A stretch of 64,000 nt of DNA, from NCBI RefSeq assembly GCF_057098645.1, contig NZ_CM169472.1, one strand, 5' to 3'. Position 1 is the stretch's first letter; the number at the start of each line of letters is the position of its first letter. Position numbers and translations under genes: made by a program. Of the stretch, positions 38-32,137 are shown piece after piece. The notes under the pieces are model-generated. The model worked only from the letters and a program-made list of their open reading frames with translations, was not told the DNA's origin and searched no databases.

Positions 38-168
38 TTTATCAGACAATCTGTGTGGGCACTCGAAGATACGGATTCTTAACGTCGCAAGACGAAAAAT
101 GAATACCAAGTCTCAAGAGTGAACACGTAATTCATTACGAAGTTTAATTCTTTGAGCATCAAACTTTT

Positions 169-1710
<1,542 letters not shown>

Positions 1711-1778
1711 CCTTAAAGAAGCGTACTTTGCAGTGCTCACACAGATTGTCTGATGAAAATGAGCAGTAAAACCTCTAC

Positions 1779-1855
<77 letters not shown>

Positions 1856-1897
1856 AATTTGCACGGCAAATTTGAAGAGGTTTTAACTACATGTTAT

Positions 1898-1973
1898 GGG
1901 GCTATAGCTCAGCTGGGAGAGCGCCTGCTTTGCACGCAGGAGGTCTGCGGTTCGATCCCGCATAGCTCCACCA
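1898..1973 (+). tRNA. alaV: tRNA-Ala (TGC anticodon)
   Basis: ggggctatagctcagctgggagagc...gctccacca, 76 nt, in 16S-23S spacer. Confidence 0.97.
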
Positions 1974-2036
1974 TCTCTGTAGTGATTAAATAAAAAATAC
2001 TTCAGAGTGTACCTGCAAAGGTTCACTGCGAAGTTT

Positions 2037-2049
2037 TGCTCTTTAAAAA
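2037..2049 (+). promoter_or_regulatory. spacer boxA-like antitermination element (tgctctttaaaaa)
   Basis: boxA-like motif between tRNA-Ala and the 23S start. Confidence 0.55.
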
Positions 2050-2156
2050 TCTGGATCAAGCTGAAAATTGAAACACTGAACAACGAGAGTTGTTCGTGAG
2101 TTTCTCAAATTTTCGCAACACGATGATGAATCGAAAGAAACATCTTCGGGTTGTGA

Positions 2157-5061
<2,905 letters not shown>

Positions 5062-25186: not shown

Positions 25187-26959
25187 TCAACTCACTGCCC
25201 CCATAATCTTCAACTCCAGCTCATCCGGCACTTCGTTATACGACAGCACATGCAGCCCCGGCGCAAACAACCTTGCATAGCGAGCCAGCAAAGGGCGCAG
25301 CTGCGGCGGCACCAGCAGTACCGGGTCTTTCCCCGCCGCTTTCATCTGCTCTTTTACCTGCGGCATCGTGCTCTGGAACTGGTTGAGCATATTCGGGTCG
25401 ACCGGCACGCTGTCGAGCATCACTTTGCCGCCCTGTTGCGCCTGATTCACCACGTTGGTCAGCAGATTTTCCAGCTCATTATTCAGCATATACACCGTAA
25501 GCTCCTGCTTGCGAACGAACGGATGGGTAATGCTGCGCCGCAGCGCCAGGCGTACATCGGCTGCCAGCAGAATGTGATCTTTAGTCACCGTGCTACTGGC
25601 GACCAGCACGGTGGCGATGGTGACGATATCGCGCAGGGAAACGCCTTCGGTCAGCAGCGCACGGTACACTTTCAGCAACTGGCTGTAATTCAGCGCCGCG
25701 CTCAAATCCTCCGCCAGGCGCGGTGCCATCGACGACAGGCGGTTATGCAACTGTGTGATGTCATCATAGTTAAACAAATCAGGAATATAGCTGCGCACAA
25801 TCTTGTTTACATGGGTGGCAATCACGCTGGCGCTGTCGATTACCTGATACCCCATATTCAGCGCCTTCGCTTTCTGCGCGGGCTGGATCCAGGTCACCGG
25901 CATCCCGTACGCCGGGTCGTTCCCCAGCACGCCGTCTATCTCGCCGTAGGTTTCGCTGGAGGGCAGGGCCATCAGTTTATCCGCCGGAATATCCGCTTCA
26001 TCGGCCTTAATGCCGTTGATGAAAATAGCGTACTGGCTGGGCTTGAGGCGGAAATTTTCCCGAATGCGGATCTCCGGCAGCAGCACGCCGTTGCCGTCAG
26101 AAATCACCTGCCTCACGCCGCGAATCCGCTGGGTGAGTGGGTTGCCCTGCGCTTTATCGACCAGCGCTACTAGCTTGTAGCCAAGGCTTAAACTGATAGG
26201 CTCGATAAGCGGAATGGTTTCCCAACTGACCTGTTGCTCGCTGGTTTCAGTGATAGTGCGGGTCAGCGTTTCGAGGCTTTTCTCTTCCGCCTCCGCCGCC
26301 TGCGGGCGTTTGCTCATCCGCCAGCCGGTAAAACCCAGTAGGGCGCTGAACAGCAAAAACGGCAGGTGCGGCATCCCCGGCACCACTGCCAGCACGAACA
26401 TGATCCCAGTGGCGGTGTAGAGTACCGTCGGGCTTGCCAGCAGCTGGTGGCGCACGTCATGGGCGATATCGCCGTTATCGCTGACGCGGGTGACGATTAT
26501 CGCCGCCGCGGTGGAGAGCAGGAGGGAAGGGATCTGCGCCACCAGGCCGTCGCCGATGGTCATCAGCACATACTGCTGGAAGGCGGCATCGGCGCTCAGG
26601 TTGTATTTGAAGATCCCGATACAGACGCCGCCGATCAGGTTGATCGCCAGAATCATCATCCCGGCGATGGCGTCCCCGCGCACAAACTTAGATGCCCCGT
26701 CCATTGCGCCGTAGAAATCGGCCTCGCTGGCAACATCTTTACGCCGGGTTTGCGCCTGCGCCTGGTTGATCAACCCGGCGTTAAGATCGGCGTCAATCGC
26801 CATCTGCTTGCCGGGCATCGCGTCCAGGGTAAAGCGGGCAGAAACCTCGGAAATACGCTCGGCCCCTTTGGTGACGACGATAAAGTTGATTGTCAACAGC
26901 GTCAGTAAATCCGAGCGCGAAAGTATTATTGCCGCGCTGCACGGGCAGTCGATTTTCAA
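25187..26959 (-). pseudogene. lfhA: FlhA-like lateral-flagellar (Flag-2) export gene remnant, N-terminally truncated
   Basis: 590-aa ORF matching FlhA from ...VVTKGAERISEVSARFTLDAMPGKQM onward; N-terminal transmembrane region missing. Confidence 0.8.
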
Positions 26960-27656
26960 CGGTGGCGGGTTGTCGCCGTTAAATAAAATCAGCCCGTCTC
27001 ATCCGCCAAAACCTGCCACCGTGGCGGTGCCGGAAGAGACGGAGAAAAAAGCGCGCGACGTCAATGAGAAAACGGCGCTGCTGAAGAAGAAATCCGCCAC
27101 CGAGCTTGGTGAGCTGGCAACCAGTATCAACACCATTGCCCGTGATGCGCATATGGAAGCGAATCTGGAGATGGAGATTGTCCCGCAGGGATTACGCGTG
27201 CTGATTAAAGACGACCAGAATCGCAATATGTTCGAACGCGGCAGCGCGCAGATTATGCCGTTCTTTAAAACGCTGCTGGTGGAGTTAGCGCCAGTGTTCG
27301 ACTCGCTCGATAATAAAATTATTATTACCGGGCATACCGATGCGATGGCCTACAAAAACAATATCTACAACAACTGGAACCTTTCGGGTGACCGCGCGCT
27401 TTCGGCTCGTCGGGTGCTGGAAGAGGCCGGAATGCCGGAAGATAAAGTGATGCAGGTAAGCGCAATGGCGGACCAGATGCTGCTGGATGCCAAAAATCCG
27501 CAAAGCGCGGGCAATCGGCGTATTGAGATTATGGTGCTGACCAAAAGTGCGTCCGATACGCTGTATCAATACTTTGGTCAGCATGGGGATAAAGTGGTGC
27601 AGCCGCTGGTGCAAAAGCTGGATAAGCAGCAGGTGCTTTCGCAGCGAATGCGCTAA
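26895..27656 (+). pseudogene. lafU: MotB/LafU-like lateral-flagellar motor gene remnant (C-terminal OmpA-like domain only)
   Basis: C-terminal part of the 296-aa ORF has MotB/OmpA-C features (IIITGHTDAMAY..., NRRIEIMV); N-terminal part of the ORF overlaps lfhA antisense and is not protein-like; start coordinate approximate. Confidence 0.7.
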
Positions 27657-27694
27657 ATGCTGAATCTTTACGCATTTCTCAAACCCTGAAATCA

Positions 27695-27710
27695 CTGTAT
27701 ACTTTACCAG
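27695..27710 (+). promoter_or_regulatory. LexA (SOS) box upstream of dinB
   Basis: ctgtatactttaccag fits CTGT-N8-ACAG, about 17 bp upstream of the dinB ATG. Confidence 0.8.
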
Positions 27711-27726: not shown

Positions 27727-28782
27727 ATGCGTAAAATCATTCATGTGGATATGGACTGCTTTTTCGCAGCGGTGGAGATGCGCGACAATCCCGCCCTGCG
27801 CGATATCCCTATTGCTATTGGCGGTAGCCGCGAACGTCGGGGGGTGATCAGCACCGCCAATTATCCCGCGCGTAAATTTGGCGTACGTAGCGCTATGCCG
27901 ACAGGGATGGCGCTCAAATTATGCCCACATCTCACCTTGCTTCCGGGGCGCTTTGACGCCTACAAAGAAGCCTCAAATCATATCCGTGAAATCTTCTCGC
28001 GCTACACCTCGCGTATTGAACCGTTGTCACTGGATGAGGCTTATCTCGATGTCACCGATAGCGTCCATTGCCACGGTTCTGCGACCCTCATCGCCCAGGA
28101 AATCCGCCAGACGATCTTCAACGAGCTGCAACTGACGGCATCTGCGGGCGTGGCACCAGTAAAGTTTCTCGCCAAAATCGCCTCCGACATGAATAAACCC
28201 AACGGCCAGTTTGTGATTACGCCGGCAGAAGTTCCGGCATTTTTACAAACCTTACCACTGGCAAAAATCCCCGGCGTCGGCAAAGTCTCGGCGGCAAAAC
28301 TGGAAGCGATGGGGCTGCGGACCTGCGGTGATGTACAAAAGTGTGATCTGGTGATACTGCTTAAACGCTTTGGCAAATTTGGCCGCATTTTGTGGGAGCG
28401 TAGTCAGGGGATTGACGAACGCGATGTTAACAGCGAACGGTTGCGAAAATCCGTCGGCGTGGAACGCACGATGGCGGAAGATATTCATCACTGGTCTGAA
28501 TGTGAGGCGATTATCGAGCGGCTGTATCCGGAACTTGAACGCCGTCTGGCAAAGGTGAAACCTGATTTACTGATTGCTCGCCAGGGGGTGAAATTAAAGT
28601 TCGACGATTTTCAGCAAACCACCCAGGAGCACGTCTGGCCGCGGCTGAATAAAGCTGATCTAATCGCCACCGCGCGTAAAACCTGGGATGAACGCCGCGG
28701 CGGGCGCGGTGTGCGACTGGTGGGGCTGCATGTGACGTTGCTGGATCCGCAAATGGAAAGACAACTGGTGCTGGGATTATGA
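27727..28782 (+). CDS. dinB: DNA polymerase IV (Y-family translesion polymerase)
   Basis: 351-aa ORF starting [33 protein letters not shown]. Confidence 0.95.
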
Positions 28783-29231
28783 ATAACATACAAATAAGAA
28801 ACTATCAGCCTGGCGATTTTCAGCAACTATGCGCTATTTTCATTAGAGCGGTTACGATGACCGCCAGTCAGCATTATTCACCACAACAAATTGCCGCCTG
28901 GGCGCAGATTGACGAATCTCGCTGGAAGGAGAAACTCGCGAAATCACAAGTGCGGGTTGCAGTCATTAATGCACAACCGGTTGGTTTTATTTCCCGCATT
29001 GAACATTATATCGATATGTTATTTGTTGACCCTGAATACACCCGCCGTGGGGTTGCCAGCGCTTTGTTAAAACCTTTGATTAAGTCTGAATCCGAACTTA
29101 CGGTGGACGCAAGCATAACCGCAAAACCCTTTTTTGAACGTTATGGTTTTCAGACAGTTAAGCAGCAGCGCGTTGAATGCCGGGGCGCGTGGTTTATTAA
29201 TTTTTATATGCGTTATAAACCGCAACATTAA
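28779..29231 (+). CDS. yafP: GNAT-family N-acetyltransferase
   Basis: 150-aa ORF; start overlaps the dinB stop (ATGA). Confidence 0.85.
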
Positions 29232-29536
29232 ATCCAGCTTGCAATGAAAATAACGCCCGCCTAATATGTGCGCGTTTTCTTATTCCACAAACTGCAAGGA
29301 GGTAAATCATGACAAATCCTTTATCAATGACTCTTTGCAGACCTTTCCAGGATTAATTCTTTTTTTCTTGCCCTGGATTCGTCTGCCATTTCCTGATTTT
29401 TATATTTATATACTCTAAATAATTCGAGTTGCAGGAAGGCGACAAGCGAGTGAATCGCCAGGAGCTTACATAAGTAAGTGACTGGGGTGAACGAACGCAG
29501 TCGCAGTTCATGCAACTTGAAGTATGACGAGTATAA

Positions 29537-30067
29537 ATGGAATGGTACATGGGCAAATATATTCGTCCCTTATCCGATGCGGTATTTACCATCGCATCTG
29601 ATGACCTGTGGATCGAGAGTTTAGCGATCCAACAATTACACACCACGGCAAATTTACCCAACATGCAGCGCGTAGTGGGGATGCCAGATTTACACCCCGG
29701 ACGCGGCTACCCGATTGGCGCAGCGTTCTTCTCCGCAGGCCGTTTTTACCCAGCACTGGTCGGCAATGATATCGGCTGTGGCATGGCGCTATGGCAAACA
29801 GATATTCTCGCTCGCAAATACAACGCCGATAAGTTTGAAAAGCGATTATCAGCTTTGGATGACGTTGCTGAAGAAAGCTGGCTGGAGGAAAACCTGCCGT
29901 CAGCATTTGCACAGCATCCGTGGCGCAGCTCGCTTGGCTCTATCGGTGGCGGCAATCATTTCGCTGAACTGCAACAAGTTGATCAAATCATCAACGCTGA
30001 ACTGTTTGCACTGGCAGGTCTGGATGCGCAGCATCTGCAACTGCTGGTTCATAGCGGCTCGAGGGGG
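29537..30067 (+). pseudogene. RtcB-family RNA ligase (PrfH-coupled), 5' fragment interrupted by an IS element
   Basis: 187-aa ORF with RtcB-like motifs (GMPDLHPGRGYPIGAAF, GGGNHFAELQ, HSGSRG); reading frame broken by the insertion. Confidence 0.8.
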
Positions 30068-30094
30068 GGTGCCCCTATTAAGTTGTCAAGCATG

Positions 30095-31291
30095 TTATGA
30101 CGCCTGCGGGGTATAAAAAGTCCCGTCGCGCATCATGGCGAACAGAACGTCGCAGCGTCGTCTCGCCAGGGCGATAAGCGCCTGATTGTGTCGTTTTCCC
30201 TGACTCATTTTGCGGGTGTAGTAAGCCCTGGAGAGCGGATCCCTGAGCGCGGCGAAGGCCGACAGGAACAACGCCCGTTTGAGAGCTTTATTACCCCGTC
30301 GCGAGGGATGCTCACCGCGTATTGACGAGCCGGATCGCCGAGTTACCGGCGCAAGGCCAGCATAAGCAGCGAGATGTGCGGCAGAGGCGAAGGCGCGGCA
30401 GGCGACCTCGGTGAGGAGTCTGGCTGCGGTCCTGACACCGACTCCGGGCATACTGGTCAGGACCGGGTAAAGAGGGTGAGCAAGAACTCGCTGTTCTACC
30501 TCAAGCACCACCTCGTCTCTTTGCTTACGCAGCGTGATGAGCTGGAGTGCCAGACGTGGCAGTACTACGGCAGCGGCATTCGTGCCGGGAACGACGACGG
30601 TTTGTTCGGCCAGTGCCTGAGCTATGTCTGCTGCAAGGCGTTTACCCAGACGAGGCGCAAGTTTGCAGAGCTGGGCTGCCAGCTTCTTCTCACCCAGCGA
30701 AGCGAGTTTTTCTGGTGAGGGATATCGCTGGAGAAGATCGAGTACCGCCGGGTGATCAAGTCTCGGACCGAGAACGCGCTCCAGTGCCGGATGTATCTGG
30801 GTCAGAAGGCCGCGGATACGGTTGCTGGCCTGCGTTGTCTGTGCGGCAAGATCATCATCGAAGCCGCAGAGCATGGAGAGTTCGGCGATTTGCTCGTCAG
30901 CCAGTTTCAGCGTGCGTAGCGCGTGAGGCAGGGTACGGGCAGCTTCGGCAATGATGGCAGCGTCACGAGCATCAGTTTTAGCTTCACCGGCGTGTAAGTC
31001 GGCTATGCGGCGCATGGCCAGTCCAGGGAGGTATCCGACAAGGACTCCTTCTGAGCGGGCAACGGCGACAGGTAACGCACCGATGGTAGCTGGCTGATCA
31101 ACAACCAGCAGTATCTGACCATGTTGTTTCAGGTCAGATATTAGCGACCTGAGTTTGTTTTCGTCGTTGGGTAATGCTTTATCGAACAGGCGTTTACCTG
31201 AACGATTAATGGCTACAGCGTGATGCGTATCTTTACCGACATCAACGCCGATAAAGACCTGGACGGATTCGTAATCGCTGGATTCGGTCAT
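30095..31291 (-). CDS. IS110-family DEDD transposase/recombinase
   Basis: N-terminal IGVDVGKDTHHAV (RuvC-like DEDD) and C-terminal MPGVGVRTAARLL...AYAGLAPVTRRSGSS...GNKALKRAL motifs. Confidence 0.88.
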   Translation of the reverse strand: MTESSDYESVQVFIGVDVGKDTHHAVAINRSGKRLFDKALPNDENKLRSLISDLKQHGQILLVVDQPATIGALPVAVARSEGVLVGYLPGLAMRRIADLHAGEAKTDARDAAIIAEAARTLPHALRTLKLADEQIAELSMLCGFDDDLAAQTTQASNRIRGLLTQIHPALERVLGPRLDHPAVLDLLQRYPSPEKLASLGEKKLAAQLCKLAPRLGKRLAADIAQALAEQTVVVPGTNAAAVVLPRLALQLITLRKQRDEVVLEVEQRVLAHPLYPVLTSMPGVGVRTAARLLTEVACRAFASAAHLAAYAGLAPVTRRSGSSIRGEHPSRRGNKALKRALFLSAFAALRDPLSRAYYTRKMSQGKRHNQALIALARRRCDVLFAMMRDGTFYTPQAS

Positions 31292-31517
31292 TCTGTCTCC
31301 CTTGTATATGGGTTAACCAGATAACCACGGGGAGCAGGTACCGGCATCCACGTTACAGACGGTCCCGGCAAAAGTGCCTGACCTGACCCCTATTAGCGGT
31401 TACCAGCGCCCCACCAGACCCGGTGACATCACCCCCCGGATCATGGACGACTGGGGGCAGTAATCATGCCGGGTCTGGCTGGCTAACACCCCATTATAAG
31501 GGGTACGAATAAAGTAA
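31292..31517 (-). ncRNA. candidate IS110-type bridge (guide) RNA in the element's 5' non-coding arm
   Basis: ORF-free, about 225 nt; perfect 10-bp inverted repeat ccagacccgg/ccgggtctgg (31414-31423 and 31469-31478); 8- and 9-nt exact matches to the target flank and the element terminus. Confidence 0.4.
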
Positions 31518-32137
31518 CGGGGCAGTCTATTTTACAGCGGCATATTGCCTCGTTTTCGCATCATGGTTTGCCTGAAGGCAGTGACGATGCGCTACGGTAC
31601 ATTGCGGAACATGACGATGCGCTGGCATTTGCGCGTATTAATAGCCAGATGATCGCTTTGCGCATAATGCAACAGGTTAAGGCCACGGGAAGTCCGGTTC
31701 TGGATGTGGCGCATAACTTTGTTAGCGCGTGTCAAATCGGCGATCAACAGGGCTGGTTGCATCGTAAAGGTGCCACGCCGGATGACAACGGTCTGGTGAT
31801 TATTCCCGGTTCACGCGGTGATTACTCCTGGCTTGTACAGCCTGTTGCGAACGAAAAAACGCTCCACTCGCTGGCGCATGGGGCAGGGCGTAAATGGGGG
31901 CGCACCGAGTGTAAAGGGCGTCTGGCAGCGAAATACACGGCGACGCAACTCTCGCGTACTGAACTTGGCAGTCGGGTAATTTGTCGCGATAAACAACTCA
32001 TCTTTGAAGAAGCGCCACAAGCCTATAAATCGGCTGAAAGCGTGGTGCAATGTCTGGTGCAGGCCGGATTAATTATTCCTGTCGCGCGGCTGCGTCCGGT
32101 GCTAACGCTCAAAAACAGTGGAGGGAAAAAAGGATGA
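31518..32137 (+). pseudogene. RtcB-family RNA ligase (PrfH-coupled), 3' fragment
   Basis: Frame resumes ...GQSILQRHIASFSHHGLPEGSDDALRY...; ends 3 bp after the prfH start. Confidence 0.8.

Follow-up and report, generated by a model that had tools for sequence, protein, structure and literature searches.

We are highly confident that the 64,000-nt stretch of DNA analysed here (the window) carries the dinB operon, under LexA control, in its common two-gene form and with the allele of E. coli O145:H28; this reading takes in, conditionally, a probable restart of translation on yafP and a proposed history of the yafN-yafO pair (yafNO). The dinB gene (27727-28782, plus strand) encodes a DNA polymerase IV (Pol IV) of 351 aa, and yafP (28779-29231, plus strand) encodes a GNAT-family N-acetyltransferase of 150 aa. 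Both were called from their Open Reading Frames (ORFs) and from NCBIfam models. The DinB of the window scores 546 bits against NF002677 (DNA polymerase IV equivalog; cut-off 256), and its YafP scores 328 bits against NF007338 (YafP equivalog; cut-off 146) over residues 1-150 of 150. Amino-acid identity to the K-12 proteins is 99.7% for DinB and 97.4% for YafP, and in the RM9872 record (E. coli O145), whose sequence is identical, the gene is annotated dinB and the locus lies at about 254-256 kb. Judged by protein similarity, both identities can be regarded as secure.

The two genes meet in a shared ATGA at 28779-28782, which lies inside the interval 28775-28790 where the initial annotation had placed an overlap of the yafP start with the dinB stop. 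The dinB gene ends in CTG GGA TTA TGA, with its TGA at 28780-28782, and yafP begins with ATG AAT AAC in a different frame, with its ATG at 28779-28781 (positions 28762-28790 read CTGGTGCTGGGATTATGAATAACATACAA). An upstream stop that overlaps or abuts a downstream start is one feature expected of a translationally coupled pair, and the 4-nt ATGA is such an overlap. The parts of a two-gene dinB-yafP operon are all present: a Pol IV orthologue, a yafP GNAT orthologue, an ATGA junction without intervening sequence, and a predicted LexA box with a candidate promoter. The view that yafP is directly coupled to dinB in a shortened SOS operon is thereby borne out as to the adjacency and supported as to its interpretation.

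It had also been claimed that the yafN-yafO toxin-antitoxin (TA) pair is missing between dinB and yafP, and the search for homologues was extended to the whole 64-kb window. With the K-12 YafN and YafO proteins as queries, tblastn in six frames gave a best E value of 1.6. The 755-bp K-12 insert gave only chance matches in blastn (longest exact match 13 nt; top-scoring match 17 nt at 94%, E=0.48). The interval thus holds no homologue of yafNO at any other place, and the claim stands: the genes for a PhdYeFM-type YafN antitoxin and a YafO toxin, which define this type II TA system, are absent from the window.

Upstream of dinB, a candidate sigma-70-like promoter (TTCTCA-16-TATACT; 27676-27703, plus strand; 9/12 consensus matches) has its -10 element overlapped by a predicted LexA (SOS) box, CTGTATACTTTACCAG, at 27695-27710 (plus strand; pattern CTGT-N9-CAG), the sole one in the operon. 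The promoter scan was at chance level overall (3 found, 3.0 expected), so the dinB promoter call rests on position and on 100% identity to the upstream region of K-12 dinB. Likewise, CTGT-N9-CAG occurs in the whole window at chance frequency (11 found, 6.6 expected), and the evidence for the predicted LexA box is therefore carried by its conservation and position. The box CTGTATACTTTACCAG is identical in K-12 and E. marmotae, and its core CTGTATACTT..CAGTG is unchanged also in Citrobacter amalonaticus and Kluyvera sichuanensis. Pattern and consensus scans found no second LexA-type site and no convincing promoter or terminator between dinB and yafP; a scan that was itself at chance level found no terminator 3' of yafP.

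The region further upstream of dinB (25187-27656) contains lafU (MotB-like, of the Flag-2 lateral flagellar system) and a minus-strand 590-codon flhA/lfhA-like ORF, which corresponds in K-12 to an annotated pseudogene with a truncated N-terminus. We take this region to be the known Flag-2 deletion scar. E. marmotae (L023) retains genes for a sigma factor and for motA-like and motB-like proteins upstream of dinB. In the B2 strain NC101 (L017, 1-1548), a recombinase-family gene occupies the usual place of lafU, and dinB has a different 5' end (1,053 bp, with a different protein accession), so that the left flank of the operon is rearranged there.

Compared with K-12, the window differs by an exact indel. 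The K-12 order dinB-yafN-yafO-yafP given in the initial annotation is confirmed by the MG1655 RefSeq annotation, the four-gene operon of K-12 being annotated in NZ_CP010444.1. The two-gene and four-gene forms differ by 759 bp bounded by a 7-bp direct repeat, ATTATGA, that is, by 752 bp plus one repeat copy. The repeat occurs twice in K-12, at the dinB stop (...GGGATTATGA followed by TGTATAC...) and at the yafP start (...TTTATATTATGA followed by ATAACAT...), where it brackets yafN-yafO. It occurs once in the window (28776-28782, plus strand, as located by comparing the two junctions), and this single copy contains the ATGA overlap. The 759-bp block of K-12 is made up of a 51-bp spacer, yafN, yafO and a 9-bp spacer; yafP thus starts 9 nt past the yafO stop in K-12, whereas it overlaps dinB in the window. 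Otherwise the two operons are much alike. From 57 nt upstream of the dinB start, the region with the -35 element, LexA box and Shine-Dalgarno sequence is identical, nucleotide identity is 98.7% for dinB and 98.5% for yafP, and yafP is without a strong Shine-Dalgarno sequence in both forms.

The two-gene dinB-yafP operon is already known and has been in the literature since 2011, so the description is correct and not new. Gutierrez et al. (2011) reported a two-gene operon with an invariant ATGA overlap in 40-50% of strains; phylogroup A was mostly four-gene, B1 entirely two-gene, and B2 and D were mixed (PMC3105422). Since E. fergusonii has the four-gene form, they proposed three or more deletions of yafNO by recombination between two ATGA sequences (PMC3105422). 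Fraikin et al. (2020) spoke of an "undisturbed bicistronic operon" and regarded the TA pair as an insertion into it (PMC7167474). Singh et al. (2023) list phylogroups C, B1 and G, together with ST131 and ST73, as groups in which YafO is less prevalent (PMC10790755). The operons of CFT073, UTI89 and all B1 strains (PMC3105422, PMC7167474) agree with that of the window in genes, ATGA overlap, LexA box, absence of yafNO and chromosomal position downstream of lafU. The window departs from other two-gene alleles by allelic differences only, with identity of at most 98.7%, and 94-98% to the B1 and B2 examples. A similar case is relA-mazG, a bicistronic operon that is intact without mazEF and has the TA pair between its cistrons in other strains (PMC7167474), although the locus and the TA family are different.

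In order to place the window among other strains, as the initial annotation had proposed alongside the comparison with K-12, both states were counted in complete E. coli genomes. A genome was scored as two-gene when a 100-bp query centred on the junction was covered in one piece; otherwise the query splits into two halves. The direct junction of the window was found in 2,569 of 5,414 matching genomes, while the K-12 yafNO block was found in 2,847 of 5,426. Since the two counts sum to essentially every genome with the locus, about 47% of the complete E. coli genomes holding it are two-gene and about 53% are four-gene. The two-gene form is one of two about equally common natural variants of E. 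coli. The 1,505-bp dinB-yafP segment of the window is identical in 23 complete genomes (O145:H28, O145:NM and related Shiga toxin-producing E. coli, STEC), three more match at 99.9%, and all of these close records (26 of 26) are two-gene. The allele of the window is specific to E. coli O145:H28 and is fixed in the STEC of this serotype. The nearest other alleles are at 98.7% (two-gene) and 98.6% (K-12-type four-gene), and no close four-gene sibling of the O145:H28 allele was found among the 5,426 genomes.

Individual four-gene lineages show other changes. IS5 or IS1 lies inside yafP or yafO in some strains, such as O157:H16 98-3133 (H100), CEA106S (H101) and MINF_8D (H145), and the operon is thus also being disrupted by insertion sequences in individual lineages. 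In E. coli FCI48 (L012, 1951-2349), an internal stop makes yafO an annotated pseudogene and yafN is intact, so the toxin is inactivated and the antitoxin kept. The complete E. coli genome MEI003 (H169) matches the yafN half of the cassette only.

Outside E. coli, dinB and yafP are found side by side without the TA pair. In C. amalonaticus, the dinB TAA is followed after 5 nt by the yafP ATG, and the pepD-gpt-frsA flank is as in E. coli. Two Kluyvera genomes have TAA, 2 nt and ATG, and two further enterobacterial contigs (DinB 86% and 83% identical to that of the window) have TAA, 1-2 nt and ATG. None of these loci contains a TA pair. A contig search for YafP, with peptide patterns that had to match exactly, returned 5 loci, and E. 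fergusonii and E. albertii were not among them. Two entries (P0025 and P0034; L027 and L028) were left out as coming from heavily frameshifted 'E. coli' assemblies. Within Escherichia, E. marmotae and Escherichia sp. MOD1-EC7003 are two-gene with the ATGA overlap, while E. whittamii, the species representative SCPM-O-B-8794 and a metagenomic Escherichia contig (L032) are four-gene. In a diverged contig (L034; YafP 72% identical), yafP is preceded by the 3' end of yafO, and the junction differs and lacks ATTATGA; this arrangement shows that the yafNO insertion is old in this lineage.

Escherichia sp. E1V33 (L018, 3176-3510) has a three-gene form at the same locus, with dinB, an intact yafN, a yafO stub and yafP. 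Here yafO is deleted past its first 26 nt at a 4-bp TTAT microhomology, and the stub of 10 codons (MRVFKTKLIL) ends in the ATGA that starts yafP. As in the window, yafP starts at an ATGA that closes the upstream frame; unlike the window, E1V33 keeps the antitoxin gene and the dinB-yafN spacer, the toxin gene alone being removed. The E1V33 form is a case of toxin-first decay leaving an orphan antitoxin.

Because Citrobacter, Kluyvera, E. marmotae and the two enterobacterial contigs have dinB-yafP without the TA pair, the adjacency appears to be ancestral in Enterobacteriaceae, and yafNO a secondary insertion in the Escherichia lineage. For the same reason, that outgroup genera seem to show the adjacency as the older state, we caution that yafNO 'absent' from the window should not be taken as yafNO 'lost'. 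At the same time, E. whittamii, SCPM-O-B-8794, L032 and, according to the literature, E. fergusonii are four-gene and L034 has yafO, so that the ancestor of E. coli itself may have been four-gene, in which case the O145:H28 lineage did lose the pair. We propose that the yafNO cassette would have entered between dinB and yafP in the Escherichia lineage. Homologous recombination, repeated precise deletion across the heptamer, or both may then have redistributed the two states, which are now about 1:1 in E. coli.

How the O145:H28 lineage came to its two-gene state was weighed with a comparison of haplotypes at 17 E. coli loci (9 two-gene and 8 four-gene). The chances look evenly balanced that this state is ancestral or was imported by homologous recombination, yafNO being a younger cassette that spreads, and is replaced, from one Escherichia lineage to another by recombination in the conserved dinB and yafP flanks. 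The outgroups without the cassette fit this reading, and an insertion view has been published (PMC7167474). The genealogies of cassette and flanks also disagree among four-gene loci: between NC101 and EC19 the difference is 0% for yafN and 0.5% for yafO, against 4.5% for dinB and 3.3% for yafP, and MEI3O23 compared with NC101 gives the reverse pattern. Mean synonymous divergence over eight four-gene loci is 0.19 for dinB, 0.14 for yafP, 0.12 for yafN and 0.04 for yafO, and in the set of four-gene loci L001, L003, L010-L014, L017, L019 and L021 yafO is about 4-5-fold lower than the flanks. Between K-12 and E. whittamii, synonymous differences number 8 of 144 in yafNO versus 75 of 340 in the flanks (Fisher p=2.8e-6), and identity is 98-99% for yafN and yafO versus 92-94% for the five neighbouring genes. 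These values suggest that the cassette, or at least the toxin gene, may have a more recent common ancestor than its surroundings and may have been exchanged by recombination.

Several points weigh on the other side. The four-gene sample is small, with just ten loci compared. The dinB-yafN spacer shows the same divergence as the flanks (6%), so the low divergence is concentrated in yafO, and constraint on yafO might explain it instead of a young age. A search of plasmids for a vehicle returned no genuine plasmid-borne yafNO, and in this search no vehicle other than chromosomal recombination was found. All 14 plasmid hits are explained otherwise: they are F-prime plasmids with the chromosomal dinB region, chromosomes filed as plasmids, or pC27A-2 and pC27A-3, whose records are sparsely annotated and apparently error-rich (35-42 annotated features in 135-150 kb).

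We also put forward, tentatively and a little short of an even call, that the published model with a four-gene ancestor may run the wrong way at a deeper level. The adjacency of dinB and yafP would then predate Escherichia. The cassette with yafNO would be younger, would have a 7-bp duplication on either side, and would still be exchanged between Escherichia species and between E. coli lineages. The O145:H28 site would be an unoccupied or re-emptied one, and not a decayed operon. If true, this younger-cassette reading would refine the deletion model of 2011, and it is already anticipated in the TA literature.

Following the model of Gutierrez et al. (2011), O145:H28 would instead descend from a four-gene ancestor, and replication slippage between the ATTATGA copies would have removed yafN-yafO in a precise deletion that does not need RecA, as one of several independent losses. 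We consider this possible, though somewhat doubtful. The exact 7-bp direct repeat of the four-gene operon is correctly placed for such an event, and the window keeps one copy. However, a precise excision and a never-occupied site leave the same sequence, so that the junction alone cannot tell which event took place. At the 17 E. coli loci, two-gene alleles stand on four or more flank haplotypes, no SNP of dinB or yafP marks the two-gene state, and NC101, a four-gene strain of B2, shares its yafP sequence with the two-gene strains of that group. This pattern fits repeated deletion, but recombination would give the same one, and the discordance between NC101 and EC19 supports recombination. The flanks of the window are about equally near to the K-12-type four-gene and to the other two-gene alleles, which again agrees with deletion, as do the separate yafO-only microhomology deletion of E1V33 and the published parsimony argument (PMC3105422). 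Against it stand the lack of a close four-gene sibling among the 5,426 genomes and the empty arrangement in the outgroup genera and E. marmotae. Recurrent precise deletion across the heptamer may well have acted too, as it and recombination are not mutually exclusive.

As for expression, dinB, coding for the translesion polymerase Pol IV, and yafP are expected to share one transcript from the dinB promoter, which is under SOS repression. For the two-gene operon of CFT073, others have shown co-transcription and a synthesis of YafP that is induced by SOS and in stationary phase, with a YafP-YFP fusion made in stationary phase and after mitomycin C (PMC3105422). The translation signals of the two genes are different. 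The dinB Shine-Dalgarno sequence GAGG has a pairing energy of -7.1 kcal/mol, while yafP reaches no more than -4.0 kcal/mol in its best anti-Shine-Dalgarno pairing, which stops 1 nt short of the ATG. This pairing seems too close to the ATG for use, and by this measure yafP is probably without a usable Shine-Dalgarno sequence. The corresponding stretch of K-12 has no such pairing (+0.4), and 43% of internal dinB 20-mers reach a pairing of at least -3.0. Given the ATGA overlap and the probable lack of a usable ribosome-binding site for yafP, ribosomes that end at the dinB stop would most likely restart at the overlapping yafP ATG (termination-reinitiation), and YafP would then be made only when and where Pol IV is made. 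In K-12, the same restart on yafP may take place after the yafO stop 9 nt upstream. As a caveat on the coupling, the GGGA motif just 5' of the yafP ATG, which gives the -4.0 pairing, could permit some independent initiation. Structure-enforced coupling at the dinB-yafP junction was also considered and is unsupported: compared with shuffled controls, mRNA folding at the junction showed no excess structure (two-gene form, z = -0.21; K-12, z = +0.44).

In the wording of Gutierrez et al. (2011), YafP synthesis is ascribed to 'translational frameshifting' (PMC3105422), by which YafP would be made through a programmed shift from the dinB frame and not by initiation at its own ATG. The yafP gene is indeed out of frame with dinB and has no good Shine-Dalgarno sequence, but we find this mechanism very improbable. 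The ATG of yafP coincides with the dinB stop, no overlap of stop and start is commoner in E. coli operons than ATGA (PMC3105422), and no slippery heptamer was seen in the last dinB codons. The dinB genes of Citrobacter, Kluyvera and the two other enterobacterial contigs have TAA as their stop, with an ATG for yafP 1-5 nt on, and in K-12 yafP begins past the yafO stop; these layouts fit restart or initiation, and none of them fits a frameshift fusion. An assembly or sequencing artefact behind the missing yafNO, such as a collapsed repeat, can be dismissed, as 2,569 genomes in all have the same junction, 23 of them independently assembled complete genomes with 100% identity along 1,505 bp, and a 7-bp repeat is unable to collapse an assembly.

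The region downstream of yafP also carries variable elements. A block of about 129 bp between yafP and the next gene (29404-29532) is missing from NC101. Its 44-nt core (29450-29493) matches, with 2 mismatches, the enterobacterial repetitive intergenic consensus (ERIC) as represented by the ERIC1R and ERIC2 primers; no match of this quality is expected by chance. The next gene, for an rtcB-family RNA ligase (29537-32137), is split by a 1,452-bp IS110-family element at about 30067-31518. The transposase gene of this element lies at 30095-31291 on the minus strand, and the RM9872 record, of identical sequence, annotates the element as ISEc20-like. Its point of insertion was located by comparison with the intact rtcB of NC101, and the two halves of the ligase gene match positions 1-173 and 192-378 of the NCBIfam RtcB model. 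K-12 and O157:H7 have a different lesion at this locus, an rtcB/prfH deletion. The 3' fragment of rtcB ends at 32137, and prfH (peptide chain release factor H) has a family-consistent ATG at 32134, chosen as its start on the grounds that the NCBIfam match begins at residue 30 of the longer ORF; the two therefore overlap by 4 nt (32134-32137), like dinB and yafP. The prfH gene appears intact although its partner rtcB is disrupted.

For the biology of STEC O145:H28, the absence of the YafO toxin from the dinB locus means that K-12 results on dinB-operon regulation and on yafNO-related persistence and stress should be transferred to this lineage with care. The two-gene operon is the form used in experimental work on YafP. 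With this layout, the synthesis of YafP would depend directly on that of Pol IV, in agreement with the reported harm by YafP without Pol IV. More widely, a TA cassette that is younger than its flanks, inside an ancestrally tight gene pair, would be a modest refinement of the picture of chromosomal TA-module turnover.
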